Assembly (NCBI GenBank): GCA_910587535.1
Contig: CAJUKM010000002.1
Coordinates: 1-62,785 of the forward strand
Origin: an uncultured Bacilli bacterium
GTDB taxonomy: Bacteria; Bacillota_I; Bacilli_A; RF39; UBA660
DNA: 62,785 bases
Reading direction: 5' to 3'
Each line of letters begins with the position of its first letter. The stretch's first letter is position 1. A program made the translations under genes and the position numbers. Below the pieces are notes generated by a model. That model was not told the DNA's origin. It worked only from the letters and a program-made list of their open reading frames with translations, and did no database searches. Shown here piece by piece: positions 310-55,359 of the stretch.

Positions 310-310
310 G

Positions 311-340: not shown

Positions 341-365
341 TTTGAATAGAATAGAGTATAGAACG

Positions 366-394: not shown

Positions 395-419
395 TTGTTT
401 TATAAAATATTTTTTATTT

Positions 420-493
420 GGGTCTATAGCCAAGTGGTAAGGCGTGGGACTGCAACTCCCTGATCGTTGGTTCAAATCCGACTAGGCCCTCCA
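420..493 (+). tRNA. tRNA-Cys (anticodon GCA)
   Basis: Cloverleaf folded by hand. Acceptor GGGTCTA/TAGGCCC. Anticodon loop CTGCAAC gives GCA. T-arm GTTGG-TTCAAAT-CCGAC. U73 discriminator is typical of tRNA-Cys. CCA is encoded. Confidence 0.9.
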
Positions 494-530
494 GATTGTT
501 AGGAAACTCGAACTTTTCGAGTAGCAATAG

Positions 531-557
531 AAAACGACTTGTCCAAAAGTCGTTTTT
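531..557 (+). terminator. rho-independent terminator after tRNA-Cys
   Basis: 9-bp stem aaacgactt (532-540) / aagtcgttt (547-555), loop gtccaa, T-run follows. Confidence 0.6.
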
Positions 558-649
558 ATGTTATTATGAATATGTCAAGGAAACTTGCATAAAATAAAAA
601 AGGAACATTCAATAATCGCATGTTGAGTGTTGCCCAAATAATTTTGACT

Positions 650-689
650 CCACCTAATTTTTTGCTAGAGTTAGGTGGATTTCTTTTAT
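650..689 (+). terminator. orphan terminator-like hairpin in a non-coding region
   Basis: 8-bp stem ccacctaa (650-657) / ttaggtgg (671-678), 13-nt loop, followed by T-rich atttctttt. No convincing upstream ORF. Confidence 0.3.
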
Positions 690-1007
690 ATTAAAACTAT
701 AAATAGTAAGAATAGTAAAAGGAAGATAATTATTACAAAGATAGAATTAAAAAATCCTTCTTGTTCATATTCTAGCCTCTTAAAACAAGCGGACGTGCTA
801 ATTTTTATAAACTTAAAGTGCTTATTTCAAATTAATATTATGGAGATGAGTTAATAAATGTAAAAGGGCTAAAAGAAATTATAAAAATATATGTGAATAT
901 CTTTCAAAAAATAAAAATGCCGTAAACGCTTATAGATAAAGGTTATAACGACATTTAAAAACTATAAAAAATAGTTAAAAAAATATATAACTTTTTTTCA
1001 TAAAAAA

Positions 1008-1084
1008 TGGCGTCCCCGAGAAGATTTGAACTTCCGACTTTCCGCTTAGGAGGCGGATACTCTATCCTGCTGAGTTACGAGGAC
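1008..1084 (-). tRNA. tRNA-Arg (anticodon CCU)
   Basis: The reverse complement folds as a cloverleaf. Acceptor GTCCTCG/CGGGGAC. Anticodon stem TCCGC/GCGGA with loop CTCCTAA gives CCT. T-loop TTCAAAT. G73 and encoded CCA. 77 nt. Confidence 0.9.
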
Positions 1085-1133
1085 ACTTATACTCATATTA
1101 TATCACGAATCTATTTCTAATTAAAGACTTTAA

Positions 1134-1160
1134 TCCATAAAAAAAGGCGCTTAGGCGTCT
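1134..1160 (-). terminator. rho-independent terminator of the YfhO-like gene
   Basis: Minus-strand hairpin agacgc-ctaa-gcgcct followed by a T-run (A-run 1134-1145 on the plus strand). It overlaps the stop codon at 1159-1161. Confidence 0.55.
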
Positions 1161-3666: not shown

Positions 3667-4360
3667 CCATCATCGCCTGCCATTCATCATAAGTCTTATA
3701 ATCTTCATGTGGAAACATCTGTGGGAACATATCAAATATAAAGTCTTGAGACTCATACATTTTTAAAATCTCGATCTTTTTTTCTAAAATATCTTCATCA
3801 ATTCTAGGAGGTTTAGTAGCTAGCTCTTCCATCTTATTTTTAGAATAATATTTTCCAAAATATATTAAGTTCTCTTTATCAACTACATCTGTCACTATTT
3901 TGTTGGTCATTACGTGATGAATGTGTCCATATTCTCCGTCTGGATTGTGAGTAACTATTTCGTCCCAATCTTTCAATTTATATATGTTTTCGATATCTTT
4001 AGTAATGTCGTCATAATATTCTTTCCAATCAGATCTCTTTCCGGCCACTTTATCAGGATAATCTAGCATTATGTATTTATCGCCCGTTTTTTCCATGACA
4101 CTTTGAAATTCTTTAACTCTTTTAGGAACTTTACCACACGTCATACACACTACGACATAGTCGTCTTCTATTAACCTAGATCCTCCCCAAAGTATTTCAT
4201 CATCTGGATGAGCTACTATCATGAGTTTTTCATTTCCATCGAGTTTCATTTTTTTATAATCTGTTTTGACAGAGTCTTTTTTTATTAAGAAAAAGACTGA
4301 AGCCAATATTACTATTAAAATCGATATGATTATAATAGTGAACACTACCTTTTTTTTCAT
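3653..4360 (-). CDS. PIG-L/LmbE-family N-acetylglucosaminyl deacetylase, membrane-anchored
   Basis: Signature MIVAHPDDEILWGG and HNPDGEYGHIHH. N-terminal TM helix. Strong RBS (aaggagga). Overlaps the downstream YfhO gene by 14 nt. Confidence 0.8.
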   Translation of the reverse strand: MKKKVVFTIIIISILIVILASVFFLIKKDSVKTDYKKMKLDGNEKLMIVAHPDDEILWGGSRLIEDDYVVVCMTCGKVPKRVKEFQSVMEKTGDKYIMLDYPDKVAGKRSDWKEYYDDITKDIENIYKLKDWDEIVTHNPDGEYGHIHHVMTNKIVTDVVDKENLIYFGKYYSKNKMEELATKPPRIDEDILEKKIEILKMYESQDFIFDMFPQMFPHEDYKTYDEWQAMMDEEN

Positions 4361-4477
4361 TACTTCCTCCTTGGTATTTACGTTTTTATACTACTCCTAT
4401 TAGGTTTTTTTGTCAATAATCGTGAATTTTAAACATATAAAAGCAAGATATATATAGAAAAAGGGGCTAATGTCGTC

Positions 4478-4506
4478 TTGCCATGTTCTTTTTCTTGTGT
4501 TAAAAT
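4478..4506 (+). promoter_or_regulatory. sigma-A type promoter for the P-type ATPase
   Basis: TTGCCA (4478-4483), 17-nt spacer ending TGT, TAAAAT (4501-4506). Confidence 0.5.
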
Positions 4507-4540
4507 CGTGACATAAGATAAGTTGGAAAGTGTGATATCG

Positions 4541-7159
4541 ATGAATTCAAAATACTGCGAAAAGGACATCAAAAAAATATATAAAGAGTTGGAAACATCT
4601 ATCGAAGGATTGAGCAGTGGCGAAGCAAAGAATAGATTAGATAAGCATGGTCTTAATGTATTGCCTAAAAAACGAAAAAAGAATATATTATCGATTTTTT
4701 TTAGTGAGTTTAAAGACCCGATAGTTTTACTTTTAATTTTTTCTATAGTTTTTTCTTTTTTAGCAGGAGAAAATGTCGATGCATATGCGATCATCTTTAT
4801 AGTTCTAGTTGATGTACTGATGGGAACTTATCAAGAGAATAAGGCTAATGTAACTGCAGAATCACTATCTAAAATGGTCAAGGAAAAAGTATTAGTCATG
4901 AGAGATGGTAAGATGGAAGAAATAGATTCGGCATATTTAACTATCGGAGATATCGTTTTATTAGAAAGTGGCGATAAGATACTTGCCGATATGAGAATAA
5001 TTAGCAGTCAAAATGCGTTAGTAGACGAGTCGATTCTTACAGGAGAGAGTATTCAGGTAGCAAAAGAAGAAGGAGCTATTTCATTAAAAAAAGCTACTCT
5101 TAGTGAAATGAAAAATATGCTTTTTGCAGGAACTTCACTAGTAAAGGGAAGAGTAACAGCAGTCGTATGTCAAATAGGATTAGATACAGAACTTGGAAAT
5201 ATTGCTAAGAGTATCGACGAAGCAGTAGAGGAAAAGTCTCCGCTTACGATAAGGATAGAAAAGTTTTCACGTCAGATTACGATGTTAATCGTCTTTATAG
5301 CTATAATAGTAACGATAATATTACTAGTCAAAGATGTTCCGCATACAGAGATATTTTTATCGGTAATCGCTTTGTCGGTTTCGGCAATGCCAGAAGGATT
5401 ACCTCTAGCACTTACGATGGCTCTTTCGATTGCCTCTAACAAAATGGCTAAAAAAAGTGTCATAACTCGAAAATTACATTCCGTCGAAAGTTTAGGAAGT
5501 TGTACTGTTATTGCTAGTGATAAAACCGGAACATTGACTGTCAATGAACAGATGGCAAAACGCATAGTTCTGCCTGATTATTCGTCTTATGAAATAAGTG
5601 GAACAGGTTACTCTTTAGAGGGAGAAATAATAGGAAAAAATTTAAAAGCTGCTAAAGAAATAGCGCTTTTGGGTATGTTAAATAATGAAGCTCTTTTTAC
5701 CGATAAGGGACCGACCGGAGATTCGATAGACATAGCATTCTTAGTTTTAGGAAAAAAAGCAAATGTCAAAACGAATAAAACTAAAGTATTAAGTATGATA
5801 CCTTATGAATCAGAAAATAAATTTTCGGCAGTATTTTTCGAAACGAACGGAGAGGTTTATTGTACAGTAAAAGGATCCTTGGAAGTAGTAAAGAAGTTTT
5901 CGAAGATATCAAAGAAATTAGATGTTGATTTAGATAGACAAAACGAAGAACTGGCGTCATCTGGTTTTAGAGTCATCTCTTTAGCGAGCGGCAAAGTAAA
6001 AAGAAAAAAGAATTATTCTATCGAGGATATCAAGAATCTTTCTTTTAAAGGTATGGTAGGTTTCATAGATCCGATCAGAGAAGAAGCTATCGAATCTATA
6101 AACGAGTGCAAAAAAGCTGGAATCAAGGTTTTGATGATCACTGGTGATCATCCTAGTACAGCATTCGCTATAGCAAAAGAATTAAAGTTAACTAACAATT
6201 ACAAAGATGTGACGACTGGTGAAGAGGTCGAAAAGTATTTAAAAAGTGGAGAAGATGCTTTCGACATGTTCGTATCTAAAAAAAGAATATTTTCTAGAGT
6301 TACTCCACTCCAAAAACTCGAGATAGTCGAATCTTTGAAAAGACAAGGTGAGTTTGTTGCGGTAACTGGAGATGGAGTCAACGACGCACCTGCTTTAAAG
6401 AGGGCAAATATAGGAATAGCTATGGGAAGTGGAACAGATATCGCAAAGGAAACTGCAAATATGATAGTTTTAAACGACGATTTTACCTCTATAGTGAGCG
6501 GAATAAAAGAAGGAAGAATAGCTTATGCGAATATCAGAAAGATAATATTGTTTTTGATATCTTGCGGTCTAGCGGAAGTATTGTTTTTCTGCCTTTCTAT
6601 AATTGCAGATTTGCCTATGCCACTAGTAGCGGTTCAACTTTTATGGTTAAACGTAGTAACTGATGGACTACAAGATTTTGCTCTTTCTTTTGAAAAAGGA
6701 GAAAAAACTTTAATGGATGAACCTCCAAGAAGTCCAAAAAGTCCTCTTTTTGATGGTTCTTTAATTGGTGAAATAGCTGTTTCTGGAATAGTTATAGGTA
6801 CGATAGTTTTTGGAGTATGGTGGATTTTATTGAATGAGTTCAAAATGGACACAAGTATTGCTCGCGGTTATATCATGGCTTTGATGGTGTTCATCCAAAA
6901 TATTCATGTATTCAACTGCCGTAGTGAAAAATCTAGCGCCTTCAGTGTATCTCTATTTTCCAATCCATTGATATTGTTAGCCATATTCGGTTCTATCGGT
7001 TTACAAATACTCGTGATGGAAAATTCTAAGCTATCTCTATTTCTACAGACTAGTTCAATTCCATTTATGCACCTAATATATTTGGTTCTTATCGCGGGTC
7101 TAATTTTTGTAATTATGGAATTTTATAAATTTCTCGCGAGAAAGGGTAAGAGAAATTAA
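4541..7159 (+). CDS. cation-transporting P-type ATPase (Ca2+-ATPase-like, P2 type)
   Basis: Motifs: TGES, phosphorylation site SDKTGTLT, hinge TGDGVNDAPALKRANIGIAMG. About 10 TM segments. ATG 4541 (MNSKY...) is preferred over the track TTG at 4523. Confidence 0.9.
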   Translation: MNSKYCEKDIKKIYKELETSIEGLSSGEAKNRLDKHGLNVLPKKRKKNILSIFFSEFKDPIVLLLIFSIVFSFLAGENVDAYAIIFIVLVDVLMGTYQENKANVTAESLSKMVKEKVLVMRDGKMEEIDSAYLTIGDIVLLESGDKILADMRIISSQNALVDESILTGESIQVAKEEGAISLKKATLSEMKNMLFAGTSLVKGRVTAVVCQIGLDTELGNIAKSIDEAVEEKSPLTIRIEKFSRQITMLIVFIAIIVTIILLVKDVPHTEIFLSVIALSVSAMPEGLPLALTMALSIASNKMAKKSVITRKLHSVESLGSCTVIASDKTGTLTVNEQMAKRIVLPDYSSYEISGTGYSLEGEIIGKNLKAAKEIALLGMLNNEALFTDKGPTGDSIDIAFLVLGKKANVKTNKTKVLSMIPYESENKFSAVFFETNGEVYCTVKGSLEVVKKFSKISKKLDVDLDRQNEELASSGFRVISLASGKVKRKKNYSIEDIKNLSFKGMVGFIDPIREEAIESINECKKAGIKVLMITGDHPSTAFAIAKELKLTNNYKDVTTGEEVEKYLKSGEDAFDMFVSKKRIFSRVTPLQKLEIVESLKRQGEFVAVTGDGVNDAPALKRANIGIAMGSGTDIAKETANMIVLNDDFTSIVSGIKEGRIAYANIRKIILFLISCGLAEVLFFCLSIIADLPMPLVAVQLLWLNVVTDGLQDFALSFEKGEKTLMDEPPRSPKSPLFDGSLIGEIAVSGIVIGTIVFGVWWILLNEFKMDTSIARGYIMALMVFIQNIHVFNCRSEKSSAFSVSLFSNPLILLAIFGSIGLQILVMENSKLSLFLQTSSIPFMHLIYLVLIAGLIFVIMEFYKFLARKGKRN

Positions 7160-7219
7160 AAAAGGGTTCAATTCTCAAGTCTTCTATGTTATAATTAATT
7201 AGGATAAAAAAGGAGTGTA

Positions 7220-8893
7220 ATGGTAATGGTGACATCGGATAATAATAAAACATCAGATTCTTCAAACTCTTTTTTAAAATACTTAAATGGATTTATTATG
7301 GCAATAGTGCATTTTGTAATGTATATTTGCCTAGGAGCTTACTATTGTTTCAATTATTTAATAGCAAAACCTTTTGAGACTATAATGAGTCTCGTCGTCG
7401 ATGGATATTATGCTCTTTTTAAGCCGAGAATTAATAGAAAAGATAAGGCCTTAAAAATCGAGATGAATTACGATGAGAAGGGCGAAAGGATAGATGAAAC
7501 TCGAGATAAAAAAGACATCTATTCTAAGATGAAAGCCAACCAAAAAATAATAAAAGAACAAAAGAAAAAAACGGGAAAAGAGATCGACGCTAAGACCAAA
7601 GAGAGATTAGATTTAGAGAGAGATTCTCTTTTAAAGATGATCAACGATGGACAAGAGAAGCGCTTTGAGAAGCCTCAAACTTTCAGATACAAAGCGATGA
7701 CTCCTGATGGAAAAATTGAGAAAAGTACGTTTATTGGTGTATCAAAACTGGACATTTATACGTTTTTAACTGGTGAAGGTTATAAAGTTTTCTCTATAGA
7801 GACATCCGATTGGATAAACTTTGTATATGGTCAATCGTTGACATTATATAAAAAACTTTCGACAAAAGATTTGATATTCTTCATAACACAACTTTCTACT
7901 TATATAAAATCTGGTATAACTCTAACAGAGGCGATGAGAATTTTATCTAAACAGTTGAAAAAGAACAAAAATCAATCCAGAATAACTCAGTCTATAGTTT
8001 ATTATCTTACGATGGGAGAATCGTTTTCAACGGCTCTTTCTAATCAAACAGGTGCTTTCCCTCCACTCGTTATCAACATGATTAAAGCTGCTGAAGCTGC
8101 CGGAAACTTGGATGAAACACTAGACGATTTGGGTCACTATTATGAAGAAATAGATGCTACAAAAAAGCAAATGATAAGCGCTATTTCTTATCCAGCTCTC
8201 GTCGGAATATTTTCGATAGTAATAATATTTTTTATAATGATAAAGATAGTCCCTCAGTTCGTCGGGATCTATGAGTCTGCCGGAGCGGAATTAAATCCCT
8301 TGACACTTTTGGTAATAAATACGAGTGGATTTCTACAGAAAAACGTCGGTTTAGTAATACTTTTAATCGGACTTGCCATCGCTGCTCTTGCCATGGCTTA
8401 TAAGAATGTCAAAGAGTTTAGAAGACAAGTGCAAATAATCACCATGAAGATTCCAGTAGTAGGAAAAATTATAATCTATAACGAACTTACGATATTCACG
8501 AAGACGTTCGCATCACTTTTAAAAAATGACGTCTTCATAACGGACTGTATCGAGATATTAAGTAAAATAACAAAAAATGAAATATATAAAGAAATAATGA
8601 TCAATACCATTTCGAATATAGCTCGAGGAGAAAAGATCAGTGAATCTTTTAAAGATCAATGGGCTATACCAGATATCGCTTATTATATGATCGTAACTGG
8701 TGAGAATACTGGTCAATTAGCATCGATGATGGCAAAGGTAAGTGCTTATTATCAAGAGCAGCACAAGACCATCATTAATTCTTTGAAAGCCATGATAGAA
8801 CCACTTTTGATCATGTTTTTAGCCGTTGTCGTCGGTGGTGTGTTGATAGCAGTTATTATACCGATGTTCAATCTATATAATACGATTGCTTGA
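7220..8893 (+). CDS. pilC: type II secretion/type IV pilus platform protein (GspF/PilC/ComGB family) with a ~150-aa N-terminal extension
   Basis: Two GspF-type repeats (...LSTYIKSGITLTEAMRIL... and ...FASLLKNDVFITDCIEIL...). The canonical PilC N-terminus FRYKAMTPDGKIEKSTF starts only at about residue 155. RBS aggag lies upstream of ATG 7220. Confidence 0.85.
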   Translation: MVMVTSDNNKTSDSSNSFLKYLNGFIMAIVHFVMYICLGAYYCFNYLIAKPFETIMSLVVDGYYALFKPRINRKDKALKIEMNYDEKGERIDETRDKKDIYSKMKANQKIIKEQKKKTGKEIDAKTKERLDLERDSLLKMINDGQEKRFEKPQTFRYKAMTPDGKIEKSTFIGVSKLDIYTFLTGEGYKVFSIETSDWINFVYGQSLTLYKKLSTKDLIFFITQLSTYIKSGITLTEAMRILSKQLKKNKNQSRITQSIVYYLTMGESFSTALSNQTGAFPPLVINMIKAAEAAGNLDETLDDLGHYYEEIDATKKQMISAISYPALVGIFSIVIIFFIMIKIVPQFVGIYESAGAELNPLTLLVINTSGFLQKNVGLVILLIGLAIAALAMAYKNVKEFRRQVQIITMKIPVVGKIIIYNELTIFTKTFASLLKNDVFITDCIEILSKITKNEIYKEIMINTISNIARGEKISESFKDQWAIPDIAYYMIVTGENTGQLASMMAKVSAYYQEQHKTIINSLKAMIEPLLIMFLAVVVGGVLIAVIIPMFNLYNTIA

Positions 8894-11790: not shown

Positions 11791-13341
11791 ATGAGCGATA
11801 AAAATAATAGAAGAAAGATATTTGTTTTAGGACTGTGTGCAATTACCATAGTGTTAGCAAGTACTATAGGGACATATGCCTACTTTATGACTAATTTAGG
11901 TAGAGAAGAAAAACAAGAATTGACAGTGACAACAGGAAAACTAGCTTTAGTATTCGAGGACAATTCAGATGGTATAAATGCAGCTCTTTCGTTGGGTGAA
12001 AGTGTAACTAAAGAATTTAAGATTAGAAACACTGGAACACAGGATGTCACCACTAATATGTTATTTAGCGAAATGATAAATACTTACATGGAAGAATCTT
12101 TATCATACAGATTGGAGTATAAAACTTCAGTAGATGGAGAATGGTCTAATGTCGAAACGTCAAATAACAATGTTCCTCAATCTAGGAAGTCAGCAGAAAA
12201 GAATTTAGCTACAAATTTGAATATTCCAGCAGGTGTAACATACTACTATAAACTGACTATTACATTTAACGACTTAGATATTAATCAGAACGTTGATATA
12301 GATGCAATATTTGCAAGTAAATTTAAAATAGGAGATGCAATAACACCATCAAAAGAGACACTAGATTACCTAGAAGTAGTAGCCAATAAAACAACACCAA
12401 ATTTTGTAGAGCCAGCAATGACAGATGAAGGAGTTTTTGCATTAGAGGATGATTATGGAACAAGTTATTACTATCGAGGAGCAGTGACAAATAACTACGT
12501 TAAATTCGCGGGATTCTACTGGAGAATCATCAGAATAAATGGAGATGGTAGTTTAAGGATCATATATGATGGAACACAAGGATATGCGAATGGAGTATCA
12601 AATACAGGAAGACTAGCATACACAGGAAAAGCATTCAATGCACAGTATAATGATGCGAAATATGTCGGATGGATGTTTGGAGGAGCGCAAGGAACGGCAA
12701 GTACATCAAAGTCTCAAGCCCAAACGAATACGACTAATTCAGATATAAAGACCTTAGTAGATTCGTGGTATAAAGAGAATATAGTAGAAAAAAATCTGAG
12801 TGATAAAGTGTCAGATACGCTATTCTGTAATGATAGATCTACTCCTGGTAAAGAAGAAACAGGATTGAGTAATGATACGGGATTGGGTTATGGAAGAAAT
12901 GTAACTGCTTATGGAGCAATAGCAAGAACAAATCGGTGGAATACAGATCTAAGTAAGGTGAACCCGATATTCACATGTCCACAAAAGAATGATGCATTTA
13001 CTGTTAGTGATGAGAATAAAGGAAATGGTGATTTAACATACCCAGTAGGTTTGATCACAGCAGATGAAATATTAGCAGCCGGAAGTGGAAAGTATTATGC
13101 AACAGCAACCTCAAGTGGTTATCTATATAAAGGATCATGGTATTGGTCGTTATCGCCTTACTATATCAACGGTAGTATTGCAGTTGTATTTAATTCATCC
13201 GGCCGTATTGGAGGCATGGCTGTCTATGAGGTTACGGGTGCTGTTGCTCCAGTAATAAACCTAAAGCCAGAATATGTAAAAACCATGATAGGTGATGGAA
13301 CTATCAATAATCCTTATAGAGATATAAACGATATTTTATAG
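11791..13341 (+). CDS. secreted protein, paralog 1: SipW/TasA-type signal peptide + TasA/camelysin-like N-domain + conserved two-Cys C-terminal domain
   Basis: The N-terminus ...ASTIGTYAYFMTN then TVTTGKLAL...SLGESVTKEFKIRNTG mirrors TasA/CalY (GTWAAFND ... SGTLDL ... LKPGDKLTKDFQFENNG). The C-domain DDYGTSYYYRGAVTNNYVKFAGFYWRIIRINGDGS...FCNDR...FTCPQKNDAF...GLITADE...WYWSLSP...VAPVINLK is shared by all four paralogs. Confidence 0.8.
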   Translation: MSDKNNRRKIFVLGLCAITIVLASTIGTYAYFMTNLGREEKQELTVTTGKLALVFEDNSDGINAALSLGESVTKEFKIRNTGTQDVTTNMLFSEMINTYMEESLSYRLEYKTSVDGEWSNVETSNNNVPQSRKSAEKNLATNLNIPAGVTYYYKLTITFNDLDINQNVDIDAIFASKFKIGDAITPSKETLDYLEVVANKTTPNFVEPAMTDEGVFALEDDYGTSYYYRGAVTNNYVKFAGFYWRIIRINGDGSLRIIYDGTQGYANGVSNTGRLAYTGKAFNAQYNDAKYVGWMFGGAQGTASTSKSQAQTNTTNSDIKTLVDSWYKENIVEKNLSDKVSDTLFCNDRSTPGKEETGLSNDTGLGYGRNVTAYGAIARTNRWNTDLSKVNPIFTCPQKNDAFTVSDENKGNGDLTYPVGLITADEILAAGSGKYYATATSSGYLYKGSWYWSLSPYYINGSIAVVFNSSGRIGGMAVYEVTGAVAPVINLKPEYVKTMIGDGTINNPYRDINDIL

Positions 13342-13356
13342 AAAAGTGTGATAAAT

Positions 13357-15153
13357 ATGAATGAAAAAAGAAAGAACATGATAATCCTTACAGTATGTGC
13401 AATAACTTTGATGCTCGCAAGTATCTTAGGAACATACGCTTACTTCATGTCCAATATAAATAACGATAGCAGACAGGAAGCAGAAGTCGATACTGGTACT
13501 ATGAGACTCAGATTTGCCGACAATGATGAAGGCATAAATGCGAAGTTGATGTTAGGTGAATCCATAACTAAGAAGTTCACTTTAGAAAACACTGGAACAT
13601 TAGATGCCACAGTATCTATAGAGTGGTTAGACATGATAAACACTTACACACTAGGTAGTCTTACGTACACACTCGAATATTCAGAGACAGAAGATGGAGA
13701 CTATATTGAACTAGTGTCTTCAACTAATGTTCCAACATCTAGTTCAGAGTTCACAAGTACATTAGTGCCGGACATAACTATTCCAGTAGGAAAAACTTAC
13801 TTCTACAATTTAGTGATAACCTTGAATAATTTGAATGACGTAGATCAAACAGAAGACTTGAATGCAAGCTTCTCTACAAAGTTCATAGTAAGTCAACCAT
13901 CTACAAATAGGAAATATACTTTAACTATAGATCCAAACGGGGGAACTATAGACGGATCAAGTGAGATTCAGACTTTAAGTATGAACGTAGGAAATACTTA
14001 TGAATTAGGAACGAACGATACTACAGGGTATAGAAAATTTGAAGGATGGACTATTTCGGGTTACGATAGTTCAATAGAGGATACTACAATAACTATAGGA
14101 AAATCTAACGTAAAAATAGTAGCAAAATATGACAGTTTCAAGATACAAGAAGCGATTAAAGCTTTAGAGAATGGAGAAACTCCAAAGTATGTGAATACAT
14201 CAATGCCAACCTTTGTAAATACAGCGACGACAGATGAAGGAGTCTTCGCGATGGAAGATGACTACGGAACGAGTTACTACTATCGAGGAGCAGTGGAGAA
14301 CAACTACGTCAAGTTTGGAGACTTCTATTGGAGAATTATTAGAATCAATGGAGATGGAAGTGTAAGAATTCAATATGACGGAGCTAAAGGATATGAAAAT
14401 ACTGTAGAAAATGCAGATAGATTAATATATACTAATAGACTTTTTAATACTCAATTTTATGATGCGAAGTATGTCGGATGGATGTTTGGAGGAGCACAAG
14501 GACAAGCAAGTACTTCAAAAGCACAGGGGCAAACAAACGAAACAGATTCAGAGATGAAGATATTAGTAGATTCATGGTATAAGACAAACATTGTAGATAA
14601 AAATTTAGGGGATAAAGTTTCGGACACATTATTCTGTAACGATAGAACAACACCAGGAAGAGAGGCAACAGGCTGGAATCTTGATACAGGAATAGGATAT
14701 GGAAATAATTATACCTCTTTTGGAGCAACTGTTAGGGCAAATGGGTATAATGTCGAATCGATAAAAGCAAAGCCTATGTTTAAGTGTCCACAAAAAAACG
14801 ATGCATTCACCGTGAGTGATGAAGTATTAGGAAACGGTGACTTGACCTATCCAGTAGGTCTGATTACAGCGGATGAAATAGTTGCAGCGGGAAGCGGAGA
14901 ATTTCATACACCAAATACTAATTATTACTTGTATAAAGGGGTATGGTATTGGTCATTCTCACCATATGCATTTAGTGGAAATGGCTCTTATATGTTTGTC
15001 GTGAATGGCTCTGGTATAGGTCGTCTAGACGCAGCTTATGTGAATGATACGCGTGGAGCAGTCGCCCCAGTTATCAATCTGAAGGCTGATTACGTGGAAA
15101 CTCTTATAGGAGATGGAACTATCAATAATCCTTATAGAGAGGTTATTAAATAA
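13357..15153 (+). CDS. secreted protein, paralog 2 (same family, with an inserted Listeria-Bacteroides/Flg_new-type repeat)
   Basis: Same signal (SILGTYAYFMSN) and C-domain as paralog 1. It has an extra ~75-aa segment YTLTIDPNGGTIDG...GYRKFEGWTISG...VAKYD. Starts 16 nt after paralog 1 (the track starts at GTG 13348). Confidence 0.8.
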   Translation: MNEKRKNMIILTVCAITLMLASILGTYAYFMSNINNDSRQEAEVDTGTMRLRFADNDEGINAKLMLGESITKKFTLENTGTLDATVSIEWLDMINTYTLGSLTYTLEYSETEDGDYIELVSSTNVPTSSSEFTSTLVPDITIPVGKTYFYNLVITLNNLNDVDQTEDLNASFSTKFIVSQPSTNRKYTLTIDPNGGTIDGSSEIQTLSMNVGNTYELGTNDTTGYRKFEGWTISGYDSSIEDTTITIGKSNVKIVAKYDSFKIQEAIKALENGETPKYVNTSMPTFVNTATTDEGVFAMEDDYGTSYYYRGAVENNYVKFGDFYWRIIRINGDGSVRIQYDGAKGYENTVENADRLIYTNRLFNTQFYDAKYVGWMFGGAQGQASTSKAQGQTNETDSEMKILVDSWYKTNIVDKNLGDKVSDTLFCNDRTTPGREATGWNLDTGIGYGNNYTSFGATVRANGYNVESIKAKPMFKCPQKNDAFTVSDEVLGNGDLTYPVGLITADEIVAAGSGEFHTPNTNYYLYKGVWYWSFSPYAFSGNGSYMFVVNGSGIGRLDAAYVNDTRGAVAPVINLKADYVETLIGDGTINNPYREVIK

Positions 15154-39586: not shown

Positions 39587-39614
39587 TTATTTAGCATAGT
39601 AAGGGATGATATTG

Positions 39615-41213
39615 ATGGACGGAAATAAGAAAAAGAAGGGATTATTAAGCTCTTTTGAACGAAAACTTGTACTCATGATTTTGATCACTATCGTGATAAG
39701 TGGCGCAACGACATACGGTTTTTTCTATTCTGTTAAAACTCAGAGTGGAGAAAACACCTTAAATACTTCTTGTTTCGACGTATCTTTCGAAGAAGGAAAT
39801 TCGATTAGGTTGGCAAACGCGATATCGATGAGCGATGCCAGTGGGCAAAAGGTAAGCCCTTATACATTTACCATGCAAAATACATGTGATACAGAGGCAA
39901 ATTATTATGTCATTTTGAGCTCAAAAATCGGTTCTTTTTCGAGCAATTTTATAAATATATCTTTGAATAAAGAAAATATCAGCACCCTTTCTAATAATAA
40001 ACAAAACAATGTCGTACCAGTCGACGACGGATATGGAGACTCGTATATCATCTCTAGTGGCTCTCTTAAAAAAGATGAGACCATAACACTCGATTTGCGT
40101 GTTTGGGTAAACTCCACTACAACTTATGAAGATGTAGCTGGAAAGACTTGGGAAGGCCAAGTAAGAGTTATCAATACAGTTAAAGCAGTCGATGATCAAA
40201 AAAATAAAGGTTTTGTCCCTAAAGCAGTTGACGCCATCCTAAGCGGCAACCCTGTAGAAGGAATAAATGAAGGAACACCAATTTTTGCGGATCCTGCAAC
40301 AACCGATGAAGGCGTATATGCAATGGAAGATGACTATGGAATGAGTTATTACTATCGAGGCGCAGTGACAAATAACTATGTTAAATTCGCAGGATTCTAC
40401 TGGAGAATAATCAGAATAAACGGAGATGGAAGCCTAAGAATTATCTTTGATGGAACGCAAGGATATGCGAATGGAGTATCAAATACAGGAAGACTAGCAT
40501 ATACAAAAAAAGCATTCAATGCACAAAATAATGATGCAAAATATGTCGGTTGGATGTTTGGAGGAGCACAAGGAGAAGCAAGTACATCAAAAGTACAGGC
40601 ACAAACAAATACGACAAATTCAGACTTAAAGACATTAGTAGATTCATGGTATAAGACAAACATAGTAGATAAGAATTTAGGAGACAAGGTAGCCGATGTA
40701 GGATTCTGTAACGATAGAACAACACCAGGAACGGCAGAGACAGGAAATATTGCTGATACAGGCTTAGGATATGGAAGTCAATATACAGCATACGGAGCAA
40801 CAGCGAGGACGAATGTATGGAATACAGATGCAAGTAAAGTACAACCTAGGTTCACATGTCCACAAAAGAATGATGCATTCACAGTGAGTGATGAGGAATT
40901 AGGAAACGGGGACTTAACATATCCAGTAGGACTAATAACAGCAGATGAAATAGTCGCAGCAGGAAGCGGAAAGTATAATACAGGTAGTACAGCAAACTCA
41001 AGTTATTACCTATATAAAGGATCATTTTATTGGTCGCTCTCGCCTTTCTATTTTGCTGTTGGTAGTGCTCATGTGTTCTATGAGAATGGTGAACTCTACA
41101 ATACGTATATCGATTATACCAACGGCGCGGTCGCTCCAGTTATCAACCTAAAGCCAGAATACGCTATTACATTAAAAGGTACAGGAACAATGGAAGACCC
41201 TTACACTGAGTAA
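39615..41213 (+). CDS. secreted protein, paralog 3 (divergent N-domain, conserved C-domain)
   Basis: Signal ...ISGATTYGFFYSV. The N-domain is unlike paralogs 1, 2 and 4 (it contains CFDVSF...QNTCD). From TTDEGVYAMEDDYGMSYYYRGAV onward it is about 85-90% nt-identical to paralog 1 in places. Confidence 0.8.
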   Translation: MDGNKKKKGLLSSFERKLVLMILITIVISGATTYGFFYSVKTQSGENTLNTSCFDVSFEEGNSIRLANAISMSDASGQKVSPYTFTMQNTCDTEANYYVILSSKIGSFSSNFINISLNKENISTLSNNKQNNVVPVDDGYGDSYIISSGSLKKDETITLDLRVWVNSTTTYEDVAGKTWEGQVRVINTVKAVDDQKNKGFVPKAVDAILSGNPVEGINEGTPIFADPATTDEGVYAMEDDYGMSYYYRGAVTNNYVKFAGFYWRIIRINGDGSLRIIFDGTQGYANGVSNTGRLAYTKKAFNAQNNDAKYVGWMFGGAQGEASTSKVQAQTNTTNSDLKTLVDSWYKTNIVDKNLGDKVADVGFCNDRTTPGTAETGNIADTGLGYGSQYTAYGATARTNVWNTDASKVQPRFTCPQKNDAFTVSDEELGNGDLTYPVGLITADEIVAAGSGKYNTGSTANSSYYLYKGSFYWSLSPFYFAVGSAHVFYENGELYNTYIDYTNGAVAPVINLKPEYAITLKGTGTMEDPYTE

Positions 41214-41904: not shown

Positions 41905-42414
41905 ATGGAAAAATTGGTCTTAACTATAGGGGGATTATTCAAATCTTTTAGTTGGGGTGATCTGTTCTTCTTTGGAGTCACTTTGTTCTTAATAGTGTTT
42001 TTGATTTACATAATCTACATGGTAAAGTTAGAGGATGAGAACTTTATCGAGGAGAAGAAAAAAGATAGTAGCGTTAAAAATGTAGAAAATAAGAGTAAGC
42101 CTCTATCTAAGATAGTCGACGAATTAGAACTCAACTATAAGCCTAAACCGATAGATCTTACCGAGTATGAAAAAGAACTAGAAAATACTGCTATCATAAG
42201 CTATAAAGAGCTTCTGGAGAGAGCTAATAACAACATATATTACGACGACGAGTACGAAAGCGGTTTTGACGACTTGATAGTCCAGAAAGTCGACAGTCGA
42301 GAGAGCAATACGCAAGAATTTGTAGATTTACCTAAGGCTGTGATGATGGATTATGAAAGCGAAGAAGAGTTCTTAAGGGCACTTAAAGTTTTACAAAAAA
42401 ACCTAGTTAGATGA
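41905..42414 (+). CDS. hypothetical membrane-anchored acidic protein
   Basis: One N-terminal TM segment, then an acidic soluble region. RBS aggaagagg. Immediately upstream of mtaB. Confidence 0.6.
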   Translation: MEKLVLTIGGLFKSFSWGDLFFFGVTLFLIVFLIYIIYMVKLEDENFIEEKKKDSSVKNVENKSKPLSKIVDELELNYKPKPIDLTEYEKELENTAIISYKELLERANNNIYYDDEYESGFDDLIVQKVDSRESNTQEFVDLPKAVMMDYESEEEFLRALKVLQKNLVR

Positions 42415-48042: not shown

Positions 48043-48121
48043 GGGGCTTTTTTAATCGCTTTAATTTGATATTTTTCATAAATTATGTTAGAATACCTGC
48101 CGTTATTAAGGGGTGTATTAT

Positions 48122-50989
48122 ATGGAATGTAGAAAAGGGGTTACTAAAGAGTCGTTTGAGAATTTTTTGGATGGAAATATGATCTCTAGATCTATACTAG
48201 AGAGATTTACCGTGCATGATATCCTTTTAAGCCTCAAAAGTTATTTGAAACCGAGCGAATATTATTTTTTATACTATGCATATTTAGATAGTGAGCGCCC
48301 AAAAATATCCGATTTTGATATACTCTTTGGGTATGATCAAAACAGGAGAAATCATTTTTCTATTTCACTTATCGAAAAAGTCAAAAATAGACTGAAAGTT
48401 ATAGAGCATAGTGAAAGCGATAATATCAACTTAGAGATACGAAATGGAAAGATAACTCCTGTAGATCTCGATATTTTATTAGCGTATTTCTTTTTGAAAA
48501 GTACATTAAAAGAAGACGAACTGGCATTCTTTAGATCTGCTATTGAGCTCGATTTTTCCTTCTATGATGGAATTAGAGCATCTACCGCTGATTCTTCTAT
48601 GGATTTCGTGTCTATCTATATTCGTTTAAAGGAAAATTTTGATTCCTTAAATGGAGAAAGGAAAGAAGAATTCAATTATTTTGTCCATAAGGCTAGGAAA
48701 AAATATGGCTTACGCTTATGCAACATGAGCTTAGATAAAGATTTAGAGAGAGCATTATTAGATTATAAAATGTCTTCTAGTCTATGGGACAGATTACCTA
48801 AAGAAGAAGCATACGAAATAGTGATGGAAAAATGCGGGACATTGTTTGACGATTTGGAATTTGCCATAGAGTCGTACTTCGACGTCAATAGAGAAGAAGC
48901 TGGAAGTATCCTGGATGCAGAAAGAGAGATGAACTTGATACGTTTTGGATTTTTAAGACGTAATGACTTACCTATCGACGTTTTATGTCAAACGGCTATT
49001 ACTAATAAAGATAGATTTACTAGTGAAGAATATAACTATTTGATGGCTTTTAGATTTTTTAAGATGTCACAAAAAAAGTTTTTAAAAAGATATCCTAATT
49101 CTAGATTGTTAAAGTCAGATAAAGCTTTGATGGATAAATTAGAAGATATGTGTCTAAACATCAGTGACTATGGAAGAGGAGTGTCCCCTAATAAGGCCAA
49201 AGATAAAAGAAATAAAGGTATAGATCCAAACATCTACGTAAATTATATTTCAAACCCATTTATTTCTTTTACACCATTAGAAAGATGTCTTCTAGGGTTA
49301 TGTTTAGTTAAAAATGAATCTTATGAAGAAATTGGCAGAATGTACTCTCTCGATAAGAGTCAAATTTCGGAGACATTGATGAGTGCAATCCACAAGATAG
49401 ATTTTTATCGTTTTGGAATAATTAAACCTGTGTTTGAATTTACTAATGAGGATTATGAATATATCTTCAGTTCTCCTAATTTTTTAGAAAAAGAAAAGAG
49501 AATCATTAGAGAACTGCGAACAGGAAATTTGTCTTTTATCTGTCAAAAGTATCGTTTAAATGAAAACGAGATAAATTGCGTACTTAAGAAAATTTACGAC
49601 AGTTGTCTTCAAAAGAGATTAAAATTCACCTATGTTTCTGTTGAAGATATTATCGAAGATATAGACGGACATCCTTATCAATCTGTACTGGGCGATAGAG
49701 CAAAAAGAGTTCTTTCTTTGCATTTGGGCCTCACTAATAGATATAATTCATCAGGGAAAATCTATACCTATGGTGAGATAGAGCGCTTATATCCAGAATT
49801 AGGGATCAGTTTAGGTGATGTATATGCTATAGCGATGGAAAAATTAAAGAAGAAAAAAATGGGACTTACAAGAGGAACTTTTGCCTACATGACAAGAGAA
49901 GAAGTAGCAATACTTTTAGAAGATAAGAGATTGCCTATAAATCCAGAAGATAAAGAAATATTAGGCTATGCCTTTGGACTTTGCAATTATCCCTATAAAT
50001 CTCCTGATAGATTAGCAGAATTTTACGGTTGTAATATAAATAATTTGAGAAGGAGAATTCAAAGAATATTTTTAACTCTGTTTAAATATAGAGAAAAAGA
50101 AATACCAGGTGCTATCTCCTACGAACTCGATGTATTTCCAAATTTGAGATATTTTACTTTAAGTGATAGAAAGATTCTTAAAAGTTTTTATCACGAAAGA
50201 ATGTCTTATGGAGATATCGCAAAATCTTATGGCCTTTCTTACGATCAAGTCACCGAAAAACTTCGCAATCTTACAAATTATTTAGGAGACATTTTGGAAA
50301 GAAGAGCAGTGCCATTCGATTTTTCTTATTATAAGTCTATACCAGAGGCTAACGTTTCTTTTAATGGCGATATAAAATTTGCTAAAAGATTATTTAATCT
50401 ATATTATGAAGAACAAAAGACAATAAGAGAAATCAGGGATGAACTGAATTTAGAGTGCTCCAATAAAACCGTTATGAGACAAATAGACGCTTTAAAAAGA
50501 GCATATATGAAAAGAAAAGTAGGCATCTTAGCAACTCCAAAAATAAGCTATAGAGATATAAGAGATTTTTATTTGAAAAATAAAGATGAAATGGACGTTA
50601 AACATAAGGATTGTTATTATAAATTCTTCAAGCAGTTGAAGAAAAAAAGTGGAGAAAATGTCGATATGGATAGACAGTTTTCTATAAACGAAGTGAGTAG
50701 GGTAATCATATGCGACATACTACAAAGTAAAAATGTAAGAAGTTATTTGAGAGTTCAAAAGTTATCTAGAAAAAGAGTCATAAAATTTTTAAGAGAACAC
50801 CTCTACGATATCTCATCTCAATCGAGAGAAGCTTTAATGTCATATTTCAATATAAGCCGTCGCGATATCATGGATTATAGAGAAAAAGAAAGAGTTTTAA
50901 AGTTACTATCAACCATAGATGTAAAACCATTAGATCAAGTATTAGATCAAGTAGAAGAGAAGAAATTAGAGATAAGTGCAGTTGGGTAG
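48122..50989 (+). CDS. large cytoplasmic protein made of tandem sigma-70 region-4-like HTH modules
   Basis: The module type 'L(S/T)xxEkxxLxxxxxxxxSyxEIaxxxxxSxxxVxxxLxxaxxKL' recurs. Examples: LSDRKILKSFYHERMSYGDIAKSYGLSYDQVTEKLRNL; TPLERCLLGLCLVKNESYEEIGRMYSLDKSQISETLMSAIHKI; AKRLFNLYYEEQKTIREIRDELNLECSNKTVMRQIDALKRAY. ATG 48122 follows aagggg, with extended -10 tgttagaat at 48086-48094. Confidence 0.6.
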   Translation: MECRKGVTKESFENFLDGNMISRSILERFTVHDILLSLKSYLKPSEYYFLYYAYLDSERPKISDFDILFGYDQNRRNHFSISLIEKVKNRLKVIEHSESDNINLEIRNGKITPVDLDILLAYFFLKSTLKEDELAFFRSAIELDFSFYDGIRASTADSSMDFVSIYIRLKENFDSLNGERKEEFNYFVHKARKKYGLRLCNMSLDKDLERALLDYKMSSSLWDRLPKEEAYEIVMEKCGTLFDDLEFAIESYFDVNREEAGSILDAEREMNLIRFGFLRRNDLPIDVLCQTAITNKDRFTSEEYNYLMAFRFFKMSQKKFLKRYPNSRLLKSDKALMDKLEDMCLNISDYGRGVSPNKAKDKRNKGIDPNIYVNYISNPFISFTPLERCLLGLCLVKNESYEEIGRMYSLDKSQISETLMSAIHKIDFYRFGIIKPVFEFTNEDYEYIFSSPNFLEKEKRIIRELRTGNLSFICQKYRLNENEINCVLKKIYDSCLQKRLKFTYVSVEDIIEDIDGHPYQSVLGDRAKRVLSLHLGLTNRYNSSGKIYTYGEIERLYPELGISLGDVYAIAMEKLKKKKMGLTRGTFAYMTREEVAILLEDKRLPINPEDKEILGYAFGLCNYPYKSPDRLAEFYGCNINNLRRRIQRIFLTLFKYREKEIPGAISYELDVFPNLRYFTLSDRKILKSFYHERMSYGDIAKSYGLSYDQVTEKLRNLTNYLGDILERRAVPFDFSYYKSIPEANVSFNGDIKFAKRLFNLYYEEQKTIREIRDELNLECSNKTVMRQIDALKRAYMKRKVGILATPKISYRDIRDFYLKNKDEMDVKHKDCYYKFFKQLKKKSGENVDMDRQFSINEVSRVIICDILQSKNVRSYLRVQKLSRKRVIKFLREHLYDISSQSREALMSYFNISRRDIMDYREKERVLKLLSTIDVKPLDQVLDQVEEKKLEISAVG

Positions 50990-50997
50990 CAATATCG

Positions 50998-51025
50998 GGA
51001 TGTCTTTTATGGACATTCTTTTTTG
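50998..51025 (+). terminator. rho-independent terminator
   Basis: Stem ggatgtc (50998-51004) / gacattc (51012-51018, one G-U pair), followed by T6. Confidence 0.6.
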
Positions 51026-53799: not shown

Positions 53800-55359
53800 A
53801 TGTTTATAGAAGAATTACACGAACAAGTTATCCCACCTAATTTTTTAAATAGCATTCTCACGAATCCATCTCTTTATGGGATGTTTAAAGATGAATTCGA
53901 AGAGAATATAGAGTACTTTCAAGGAATAAAAAAAGAAGTATATCTAAAAGCTATGTTAGAGTTTATAGAGGATAGCCTCTTTTCTGGATTCGATTCACCA
54001 CAAGCTGCTGAGAGCAAATTGAAATACATGAGATGTTTTTATGATGACTTTTTGCTTTTAGAATTTAAAAAAGATCCAGAGTCTCTTTTAAAAACGCGTT
54101 TTTTTAAGGGGTTAGTTAGTGCATTTAAAGACGATGCTTATGCTAGAGATTCTTTAGAGTTTAAAGATTTCTATGAATATGTCTTCAACGTATCTTTGGA
54201 CTATATGGGAATTATAGAAGTTCTAACAAAAGATGCGATAGGAAACTTAAAAGATGGAGAAGAGCTCGGCATCAAAGAGTTCAACTTGATGTGTAACTAT
54301 GTCAAAAACAATATCGATGGTATTCTAGACATGGATATAGTAACTGGAATGCTCAAAAATCATGCCTTTAAGAAAAATCACATCTTCGATCGAGATGTCG
54401 CATGTGAATTAGTGTCGTCGACTATAAAGAATTATTTGACGACTTTCGGTATCGATTCGCAAGTTATATTTTTAGACGAAGATAGCGAAGAGGAGGATGG
54501 TGCCCTAGAAAACGTCATAGAAATAGAGGCTTCTGCAATAGATGGTTTTATCTCTCTTAATTATATAGAACTCTTCGAAGTTGCGTTTATGAAGGCAGAT
54601 CTATTAAAAGATCAAATCCTCTTAAAGGAGAACAGAGTAGATTATGATACTCTCAAAGTGATCATGAACTTCGTCTCCTTTGGTGTCGATTTAGAGAGAT
54701 TATTTGTAGAAGAAGAATACAAACCAGAAGAATATTTCGAAGACTTAAGAGCTTCAGGATTCATAAAAGCATTGAGATTTTTTGCCTCTTTTGGAGTCAA
54801 TCTGTTCTCTAATTATGTCGGGACAGTTACAAGAGATATAGTTTTAGATGACGAAATGACTGATGCGATTTCTCCTAAAGAAATATGCCTAGATCAGAGG
54901 TTTGAAAAAACGTTCAAAAAGATCGGCAATAAAGATGAATTGCTGAGTAGATTTTCTGTTTTAAAACTTCTTTTCAGTTCGGATGGAAAGAGAAAAAATA
55001 CTCTAGATTTAATAAAATCTATGTCTAAAAATGAATGTAACAGAGCTTTTCTAGATGAGTATCTTCACTCTAGAATAATAGATCCAGATTCGATGGTAGA
55101 AGACGTGAACAGACTATCTCAATATAAACCTAAGGATGAAGAAATAAAATTTTTGATAGAGGAAGAACTGAAATATATTTATGTCGATTCTTTCTTTTAC
55201 AGTTTGGATAGTTTTATAAAAGCTAATCCAAATATGGATATCGAAGAATATCTAGACGATCTATCTTTAAAGGTCAACTGTATAAAAGATACACCTTTAG
55301 CCCACAGATTTATCGATGAAGCAATTTTTACGATAAGTGATGTGAAACAATCTCTATAG
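53800..55359 (+). CDS. hypothetical acidic cytoplasmic protein (519 aa)
   Basis: Strong RBS agaggtggg. Long uninterrupted ORF. No motif recognised. Confidence 0.65.
   Translation: MFIEELHEQVIPPNFLNSILTNPSLYGMFKDEFEENIEYFQGIKKEVYLKAMLEFIEDSLFSGFDSPQAAESKLKYMRCFYDDFLLLEFKKDPESLLKTRFFKGLVSAFKDDAYARDSLEFKDFYEYVFNVSLDYMGIIEVLTKDAIGNLKDGEELGIKEFNLMCNYVKNNIDGILDMDIVTGMLKNHAFKKNHIFDRDVACELVSSTIKNYLTTFGIDSQVIFLDEDSEEEDGALENVIEIEASAIDGFISLNYIELFEVAFMKADLLKDQILLKENRVDYDTLKVIMNFVSFGVDLERLFVEEEYKPEEYFEDLRASGFIKALRFFASFGVNLFSNYVGTVTRDIVLDDEMTDAISPKEICLDQRFEKTFKKIGNKDELLSRFSVLKLLFSSDGKRKNTLDLIKSMSKNECNRAFLDEYLHSRIIDPDSMVEDVNRLSQYKPKDEEIKFLIEEELKYIYVDSFFYSLDSFIKANPNMDIEEYLDDLSLKVNCIKDTPLAHRFIDEAIFTISDVKQSL

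Follow-up and report, generated by a model that had tools for sequence, protein, structure and literature searches.

An array of sigma-70 region 4-type modules

The 62,785-nucleotide stretch of DNA analysed here, referred to as the window, represents positions 1 to 62,785 of contig CAJUKM010000002.1 from an uncultured Bacilli bacterium. On its + strand, an open reading frame (ORF) extending from position 48122 to 50989 encodes a protein of 955 residues, which an initial annotation had described as at least 7 to 9 tandem units resembling region 4 of sigma-70 factors (sigma-4). Both the ORF and the nature of the units were borne out: the window protein is an array of approximately ten helix-turn-helix (HTH) modules of the sigma-70 region 4 type, as evidenced by repeat statistics with controls, profile matches, and an AlphaFold2 model. 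Sequence comparison furthermore lends good support to the view that it is an N-terminally truncated derivative of a family of giant SigA-like sigma factors, in which sigma regions 1.2, 2, 3, and 4 are followed by an array of approximately 900 residues. The initial annotation did not recognise that the protein is no orphan invention and that a real sigma region 4, now degenerate, survives as its first "unit."

The gene is carried by DNA with a G+C content of approximately 32%. Its features are listed below, with residue numbers referring to the window protein.

48066..48094, + strand: promoter-like site TTGATA-17-TAGAAT with extended −10 TG; consensus match 10/12, TG present
48108..48113, + strand: ribosome-binding site AAGGGG, 8 nt 5' of ATG 48122, read directly from the sequence
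48122..50989, + strand: coding sequence, 955 residues plus stop, ATG start; sigma-less member of the giant-sigma/sigma-4-array family
48146..48409, + strand: remnant of the sigma 3.2/4 linker (residues 9-25, ESFENFLDG, similar to SELGDFI) and degenerate true sigma region 4 (residues 26-96), aligning to region 4 of sigma-bearing homologues; helices 44-55, 62-69, 73-96
48467..48667, + strand: module R1, residues 116-182, sigma-4-like; top match of the true sigma-4 profile, P 8.3e-9, probability 95.8%; helices 131-142, 149-154, 161-175
48686..48898, + strand: module R2, residues 189-259, weakly sigma-4-like; weak profile matches, P 0.005-0.024; helical in the model
48974..49171, + strand: module R3, residues 285-350, helix-helix-helix; helices 301-311, 317-323, 334-344; weak repeat matches, P 0.2-0.4; inside long off-diagonal self-alignments
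49172..49219, + strand: low-confidence linker, residues 351-366, site of a missing module; gap of about 80 alignment columns relative to homologues; pLDDT below 50 at residues 355-365
49235..49435, + strand: module R5, residues 372-438, best sigma-4 match; Pfam Sigma70_r4 at residues 384-425; hhalign P 4.3e-6; ends in family-invariant KIDFYRFG
49442..49633, + strand: module R6, residues 441-504, sigma-4-like; P 2.2e-4 versus true sigma-4, P 2.1e-5 versus R9; helices 456-465, 470-476, 481-502
49649..49891, + strand: module R7, residues 510-590, sigma-4-like; P 1.5e-4 versus true sigma-4, P 7.8e-5 versus R8; helices 525-535, 550-556, 558-579
49907..50116, + strand: module R8, residues 596-665, sigma-4-like; hhalign P 5.3e-5; family-invariant P605 and Y656
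50123..50326, + strand: module R9, residues 668-735, sigma-4-like; P 2.5e-4 versus true sigma-4, P 1.8e-5 versus R5
50339..50557, + strand: module R10, residues 740-812, HTH more diverged from sigma-4; P 6e-4 versus R5, P 0.016 versus true sigma-4; weak Pfam HTH match at residues 764-823; helices 751-763, 768-775, 781-799
50558..50986, + strand: basic helical C-terminal tail, residues 813-955, net charge +8, family-conserved
50997..51019, + strand: terminator-like hairpin, 8 nt past the stop codon; 9-bp stem with 3 G-C pairs, followed by the T-run TTTTTTGT

An alternative in-frame GTG at position 48113 would add 3 residues; ATG 48122 is the likelier start codon, because the AAGGGG ribosome-binding site lies 8 nt upstream and the gene call of P0001, a 99%-identical copy of the window protein, begins at the same methionine. 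The initial annotation had also given the gene a promoter and a terminator of its own. Sites of both kinds are present, but such consensus matches are not enriched over shuffled sequences in the AT-rich region of the gene.

The family region 4 hidden Markov model (HMM) matches residues 26 to 77 of the window protein at E<1e-3. Within R5, columns K425 to R430 are invariant; in R7, helices 1 and 2 are separated by a conserved insertion, G-x-x-x-x-Y-N-x-x-G; and the basic recognition helix of R8, NLRRRIQRIF, resembles the RERIRQ of region 4.2, with an RRRxQR motif retained. The module missing from the window protein is sigma-4-like and occurs in most relatives; it is matched by the true sigma-4 profile with P 4.4e-5 and maps to residues 352 to 362. 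The C-terminal tail may contain one more degenerate unit at about residues 883 to 931, where weak repeat matches were obtained.

Internal repeats were assessed with hhalign by aligning the profile of the extension (the part behind sigma-4 in the relatives described below) with itself, i.e., with an identical query and template and with alternative alignments; the reversed profile and five column-shuffled profiles served as controls. The off-diagonal alignments scored 120, 111, 85, 81, 63, 61, and 57 (P 2e-13 to 1e-5), compared with a best score of 24 for the reversed profile and 15 to 22 for the shuffled profiles, so that the claimed repetition was upheld by scores of up to 120 versus at most 24 in the controls. 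Single modules used as queries recovered other modules in one common register. An authentic region 4 profile, made from 65 sigma-bearing relatives within a 75-sequence alignment, matched seven modules of the extension (P 8e-9 to 2.5e-4, scores 32 to 58; maximum for the reversed control 15.6), six of which are present in the window protein, and gave three further, weaker matches in the extension.

Comparison with PF04545, PF08281, and PF00196 gave a divided result, Sigma70_r4 being borderline on the window protein and clear in its relatives, and PF00196 (GerE) matching neither. Specifically, Pfam Sigma70_r4 on the window protein alone reached 24.0 bits versus a cut-off of 24.1, with two stretches, the best at residues 384 to 425, whereas the R5-equivalent module in relatives scored up to 82.9 bits. 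Similarly, the NCBIfam sigma70-ECF model TIGR02937 reached 28.9 bits versus a cut-off of 42.9, with three stretches, the best at residues 681 to 717; within R9, NCBIfam stretches of sigma70-ECF, Sig70_bacteroi1, and YlxM lie at residues 681 to 721. Weak matches to assorted HTH families were found at residues 685 to 717 and 764 to 823. When 26 relatives were represented by their R8-R10 fragments, which leave out the authentic sigma-4 and the best module, Sigma70_r4 was matched in 19 (best E 1.3e-9) and Sigma70_r4_2 in 9, and almost all other Pfam matches were to HTH families. PF00196 was matched neither by the window protein at E up to 10 nor by the 26 fragments at E up to 0.01. The LuxR-type affiliation considered initially is consequently discarded, as GerE was never among the matches and Sigma70_r4 and Sigma70_r4_2 dominate. 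Among the PDB sequences, no match to the window protein was detected at E up to 10.

Two further libraries gave marginal signals. In PHROGs, only phrog_323 ("transcriptional regulator, D5-like") matched, at residues 605 to 846 (positions 49934 to 50659, about three modules) with E 2e-4; given this weak match, some phage regulators may have a multi-HTH arrangement, too. PADLOC returned only a CasR HTH match with E 9.6e-4 and 17.1 bits, with no stretch passing alone. As both matches are marginal and the gene context is of the housekeeping type, an origin from a phage or an anti-phage defence system was ruled out. A weak NCBIfam match to the AcrIIA2 anti-CRISPR family at residues 179 to 251 (positions 48656 to 48874; 16 bits versus a cut-off of 40, E 0.01) most likely reflects a chance similarity of helical segments.

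The AlphaFold2 model of the whole protein is all-α, with a mean predicted local distance difference test (pLDDT) value of 85.9 and a predicted template modeling score (pTM) of 0.64; for the three-module R8-R10 fragment, these values are 93 and 0.79. The model features nine clear triplets, each composed of a helix of about 11 residues, a helix of about 7 residues, and a long helix of about 19 to 22 residues, together with one weaker unit and the helical tail. The original count of 7 to 9 units was therefore conservative, if anything, and all six peptides quoted in support of it fall on verified modules, namely the sigma-4 remnant (residues 45 to 91), R5, R6, R8, R9, and R10. Single modules can be superposed on solved sigma region 4 domains (8jzt_A, 5fgm, 1ku3, 4g6d_A, and 3hug) with a root mean square deviation of 1.3 to 2.9 Å over 53 to 65 residues and a target-normalised TM score of 0.6 to 0.83. 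The fold assignment is based on the quality of these superpositions and on the independent sequence-profile evidence; sigma factors dominate the Foldseek matches of both the whole protein (about 45 of the top 50) and the fragment despite non-significant E values. A Foldseek search of the viral library returned phage sigma factors and HTH proteins only and no analogue of the array. The model lends good support to the view that the modules pack into a single rigid body composed of helices. Conservation is highest in the inter-module linkers (DxHLPI, KYxxGEI..Y..D..P.LKYF, FDFDY, and PFYG) and in the recognition helices of R5 (SNIITDxIRKIDFYRFG) and R8 (SxxRRYQRAI).

Family of giant SigA-like sigma factors and forms without the sigma part

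A word-index homologue search retrieved 6 and then 3 proteins; the family was revealed by an exhaustive profile search with the extension alone, which, with each representative standing for a cluster at 50% identity, yielded 324 of them at E<1e-3 and 168 at E<1e-30. The window protein aligns with its relatives P0002 to P0006 with E 2e-66 to 3e-40 over 60 to 97% of the query. Four of these (P0002, P0004, P0005, and P0006; 1,181 to 1,470 residues) possess a complete N-terminal sigma part with Pfam regions 1.2, 2, 3, and 4, behind which lies a long extension that aligns end to end with the window protein. In the latter, the homology of the array spans about 850 to 900 residues and includes the invariant motifs KIDFYR, DxHLPI, LKYF, FDFDY, and PFYG. 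Most representatives comprise 1,160 to 1,235 residues, with the extension beginning at residue ~290 to 320, and region 2 is present in 102 of the 114 representatives with a full-length extension and absent in the remaining 12.

The sigma part of the long relatives is SigA/RpoD-like, as indicated by E 7.5e-42 to the solved SigA 7l7b and by the canonical FSTYATWWIRQAITRAI and (K/R)ERIRQ motifs. RpoD models are also their best NCBIfam matches, at about 178 to 187 bits versus cut-offs of 555 to 572. Region 1.1 is absent from the long relatives, and in five loci the family gene does not adjoin dnaG. In three related clades, the gene is located beside the mrnC-rlmB-sigH-secE-nusG cluster. The sigma-bearing P0005/P0007 clade (1,470 to 1,503 residues) and the 1,232-residue P0006 share a syntenic slot beside mrnC-rlmB-sigH-secE-nusG-rplKAJL (L005:9376-13788, L009:10001-14512, and L014:8689-12387). 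The long P0005/P0007 forms contain an internal duplication of sigma-4 and the first extension modules.

The source records are animal-gut metagenome-assembled genomes (MAGs) assigned to uncultured "Bacilli bacterium," except that two, L003 (CAYOYB010000007.1) and L004 (CAZWST010000040.1), are titled "uncultured Muribaculaceae" (Bacteroidota). This label could be mistaken; alternatively, the family may reach beyond Bacilli. All other members with an assignable source are from Bacilli MAGs. A scan of genome contigs yielded four loci, none of which holds two family members except for a tandem array in L001, and a scan of metagenome contigs found one locus. In L001 (positions 197-7471 of CANQZL010000061.1, a rabbit-gut Bacilli MAG), three sigma-less paralogues of 926, 1,008 (P0003-like), and 451 residues follow one another on one strand, and the family evidently grows by local duplication.

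The window protein itself begins, according to the alignment, at the sigma 3.2/4 linker and lacks regions 1.2 to 3. Region 2 (PF04542) gave no match with Pfam or NCBIfam, nor did the family HMM of regions 1.2 and 2, although the latter matches the 102 full-array relatives; together with a scan of the window, which was likewise without a match, this agrees with the initial statement that sigma region 2 is missing. In the sigma-4 remnant, the −35-contact motif is lost, with NRRNHF in the window protein and SEMERF in its orthologue P0008 in place of the (K/R)ERIRQ of sigma-bearing relatives. A miscalled 5' end or a gene fragment was ruled out by the complete AI-2E-family transporter gene 79 nt upstream, by the synteny and the start shared with P0008 and P0001, and by the lack of region 2 coding potential in the window.

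In a rough neighbor-joining tree of the extension, sigma-less forms occupy 5 to 7 separate positions among sigma-bearing ones. Moreover, there are intermediates of 1,094 to 1,116 residues in which region 3 is absent and region 2 is degenerate, e.g., FSNYIVGEIRREIS in place of FSTYATWWIRQAITRAI. Because sigma-less forms are scattered in the tree and intermediates exist, loss of the sigma module has been recurrent. The intermediate forms (L002:9056-12403, L013:8432-11782, P0014, P0016, P0022, and P0024) resemble snapshots of sigma decay; the one in L002 sits between obg and a gene for a flavin adenine dinucleotide (FAD)-dependent oxidoreductase, and L013 has the same oxidoreductase gene downstream. 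As for the window protein, the syntenic P0008 agrees with it in both the start and the deleted module, so that the sigma-less form is old and maintained rather than a miscall.

No model in Pfam or NCBIfam covers the extension, and searches of the full-text literature on sigma factors of giant size or with extensions, and on arrays of tandem region 4 or HTH units, produced no description of the family. The initial assertion that no characterised protein has such an architecture thus held for Pfam, NCBIfam, the PDB sequences, and the full-text literature. Sigma itself has reportedly been viewed, in conceptual papers (PMC4581349 and PMC4802759), as four HTH repeats. A rigidly packed chain of approximately ten sigma-4-type modules is not known from other proteins.

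Known systems resemble the family in parts. With the group 1/2 sigma-70 factors (SigA/RpoD), the long relatives share sigma regions 1.2, 2, 3, and 4 with canonical region 2.4 and 4.2 motifs, and the window protein shares a homologous, though degenerate, sigma-4 as well as the sigma-4 fold of its repeat modules. It differs from these factors in lacking regions 1.2, 2, and 3 and the −35-contact residues, and the C-terminal array of about 900 residues in the long relatives is not known from characterised sigma factors. Among extracytoplasmic function (ECF) sigma factors, a passage of PMC7730460 describes a SnoaL-type C-terminal extension after sigma-4 for SigG1 of group ECF56. Such factors likewise have an extra domain fused behind sigma-4 that presumably modulates activity; however, ECF factors consist of sigma-2 and sigma-4 only and carry short non-HTH extensions (~100 to 200 residues), whereas the sigma part of the present family is RpoD-like with region 3, and its HTH array comprises about 900 residues and also occurs free-standing. 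MzaA of the MZA anti-phage system is a large protein with an RpoD-like sigma domain, and the sigma parts of P0002 and P0005 match MzaA models; the match is confined to the sigma domain, which in MzaA is C-terminal.

Outside sigma factors, a single sigma-4-type HTH is found in YlxM/UPF0122 (PDB 1xsv). Signals of this type were seen as Pfam UPF0122 matches in 3 of the 26 R8-R10 fragments and as a structural match to 1xsv, while the YlxM model NF045758 reached 21.2 bits at residues 681 to 721 of the window protein, below its equivalog cut-off of 80; YlxM is a one-domain protein of about 110 residues, in contrast to about ten domains in a rigid chain. DUX4, Tc3 transposase, and proteins with paired- or Myb-type repeats combine consecutive three-helix HTH modules in a single chain, and every module can read a DNA half-site. 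These proteins, however, have two or three modules and flexible linkers; their structural E values of 0.06 to 0.2 are non-significant, and no sequence relationship exists.

Gene neighbourhood and synteny

The gene downstream of the array gene is parC, as initially proposed; it is of the Gram-positive type and scores 935 bits with TIGR01061, above the cut-off of 813. Upstream, the complete gene for the AI-2E-family transporter, ending 79 nt before the array gene, is preceded by recD2, a gene for a LysM protein, and mtaB. The remainder of the window resembles an ordinary chromosome of an anaerobic Firmicute, with genes for YfhO, a P-type ATPase, SMC, pyruvate:ferredoxin oxidoreductase, and the cell envelope. 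No defence genes were found near the array gene, its neighbours being housekeeping genes. Five ORFs of 169 to 601 residues in the window (39606-41213, 41905-42414, 53800-55359, 11791-13341, and 13348-15153) had no Pfam match at the thresholds used; the one of 519 residues, just 3' of parC, has a counterpart of 533 residues at the same position in L008.

The orthologue P0008 (947 residues) is 41% identical to the window protein over 943 residues and shares its start and its module deletion. The order at its locus is mtaB, LysM, recD2, AI-2E, the orthologue, and a gene for a topoisomerase IV/gyrase subunit A at the parC position. Near-identical copies of the window gene, encoding 951 residues, are present on other contigs, and NCBI labels one such copy a "hypothetical protein." The 955-residue allele is set apart from the 951-residue alleles, including P0001, by a 12-bp in-frame tandem duplication (LDQV-LDQV) at window positions 50930 to 50941. 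Across the clades of the family, no conserved neighbouring gene was found in the loci compared.

Possible functions of the array

Region 2 of sigma anchors the factor to the clamp helices of RNA polymerase and melts the −10 element. As the window protein lacks region 2, established structure-function relationships of sigma argue that it does not qualify as a sigma factor on its own, and core binding or promoter-specific initiation by this polypeptide alone is very unlikely. In the holoenzyme, sigma-4 is positioned on the β-flap at the −35 element, facing upstream DNA; because the array follows sigma-4 in this geometry, it would be placed at and upstream of −35 in the fused relatives. There, its basic recognition helices might read or wrap upstream promoter DNA, with the near-invariant helices of R5 and R8 as the best candidates. 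The sigma-less protein would keep this DNA binding and work in trans at the same kind of upstream sites, and its effect could be architectural or else repressive, in which case it would compete with the housekeeping holoenzyme or a sigma-fused paralogue; it may also cooperate with either of them. Its gene would be a monocistronic chromosomal unit with its own promoter, located between the AI-2E-family transporter gene and parC. Judged from sequence, the most likely role of the window protein is that of a free-standing DNA-binding regulator with many HTH modules or of a protein shaping promoter architecture, a reading to which we assign a probability of roughly 0.5.

The array has outlasted several losses of the sigma part and must therefore possess an activity independent of covalently linked sigma-2 and sigma-3. 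Several observations are in accordance with DNA binding. The recognition helices of R5 to R8 contain 21 to 27% K+R versus 4 to 10% D+E (29% and 12% in true sigma-4), and the R8 helix across the family contains 27% K+R and 4% D+E. The window protein has an isoelectric point (pI) of 8.8. The best multi-module structural matches of R8-R10 are DNA-bound double-HTH proteins, i.e., the double homeodomain of DUX4 and the bipartite domain of Tc3. Other observations weigh against a DNA-binding regulator. Family members differ in the recognition helices of R1, R6, R7, R9, and R10, and the window protein has acidic modules R1 and R2 (net charges −6 and −4); part of the array may therefore be purely structural or protein-binding. 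Neither a sigma-fused paralogue nor a canonical sigA was found within the 62.8-kb window. Versus the PDB, Foldseek gave no significant E value, the best being 0.014 with the fragment and 0.11 with the whole protein, and the window gene and its 99%-identical copy differ by 8 non-synonymous and 3 synonymous codons, which are too few to demonstrate purifying selection.

Some of these features would be expected of a protein-binding array, in which the modules, including the sigma-4 remnant, dock on the β-flap tip, on anti-sigma factors, or on activators that contact sigma-4; the window protein would then act as a competitor, decoy, or scaffold, and the array of the fused relatives as a regulatory domain in cis. 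A decoy for anti-sigma factors or activators had also been among the initial suggestions. The remnant keeps the sigma-4 fold yet has lost its DNA-reading residues, as expected if a protein contact is conserved, and a rigid body with conserved inter-module linkers, variable recognition helices in most modules, and acidic N-terminal modules is consistent with such a role. Regulatory C-terminal extensions of ECF sigma factors, as treated in the cited passage of PMC7730460, provide a precedent. We nevertheless regard this explanation as rather doubtful, given that the sequence indicates no partner, that no neighbouring gene is conserved across clades, that the recognition helices of R5 and R8 are strongly conserved, basic, and typical of DNA readers, and that ten modules far exceed the need of a single decoy surface. 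Groups ECF41 and ECF42 are further precedents for regulatory C-terminal extensions. A different division of labor is known from Bacillus subtilis, where SigO (YvrI) and RsoA provide the sigma-4 and sigma-2 functions on separate polypeptides. As one half of such a split sigma factor, the window protein would contribute sigma-4 and the array, whereas a separate region 2 protein would account for core binding and −10 melting. Its start exactly at the sigma 3.2/4 boundary, a natural domain break, would suit this arrangement, as would the intermediates with a degenerate sigma-2 and no sigma-3. SigO, however, has no repeat array, and a search of the 62.8-kb window with a family sigma N-terminus as the probe revealed no region 2-like ORF, even with a threshold as lax as E<10, nor was a region 2 gene found beside the orthologue in L008 or L012. 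With the −35-reading residues of the remnant gone and unrelated housekeeping genes on either side, a split sigma factor is improbable.

Two explanations dispense with promoters altogether. A chain of many HTH modules with a pI of 8.8 and a basic C-terminal half, encoded near parC, recD2, and, farther off, smc, could be a generic nucleoid-associated organiser that binds non-specifically along the chromosome, which was the first suggestion of the initial annotation. This neighbourhood is not kept in the wider family, though, the net charge is modest, at +15 over 955 residues, and ranges from −27 to +38 in the family, and descent from a promoter specificity factor together with the near-invariant recognition helices of R5 and R8 points to specific recognition. 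The family context favours a role at promoters or upstream DNA, and there is little likelihood of a generic nucleoid protein. It is even harder to view the gene as a decaying relic, i.e., a pseudogenised sigma gene that is functionless and still open by chance. The lost N-terminal sigma part, the degenerate sigma-4, the deleted module, and the strain differences mentioned above plus an indel would fit decay, but an open frame of 955 codons is not expected by chance in DNA of this G+C content, and the syntenic, 41%-identical orthologue matches the window protein in architecture and length. The fold is predicted with high confidence, the gene has an intact ribosome-binding site and a promoter-like site, and complete ORFs encode at least 11 further sigma-less representatives; a relic is accordingly quite implausible.

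If the preferred reading, a DNA-binding regulator or promoter-architecture protein, is extended to the whole family, the giant sigma factors might embody a new mode of promoter recognition, which we put forward only tentatively. A rigid array of approximately ten modules on a SigA-like sigma factor would read or wrap about 100 bp upstream of −35, as a built-in activator or UP-element reader, and the sigma-less derivatives would be competitors or partners in trans at the same sites, exerting an "anti-sigma by DNA-site occupancy."

Whereas the architecture and its free-standing form are new, the building block and the sigma-70 ancestry are already known. Sigma factors rank with the most thoroughly studied proteins of bacteria. 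The family, with at least 168 clusters at 50% identity and known so far from metagenomes of uncultured gut Bacilli, departs from their domain plan, which is regarded as settled and comprises regions 1.1 to 4 or, in ECF factors, sigma-2 and sigma-4, sometimes with a short regulatory tail. As a modular, rigid, and confidently predicted HTH array, the extension could also interest protein engineers. If the array binds RNA polymerase or regulators, it would constitute a new class of sigma-4 mimic; if it binds upstream DNA, it would represent a new way of building promoter specificity into sigma itself, and the sigma-less forms would be a natural case of a general initiation factor becoming a classical DNA-binding regulator.

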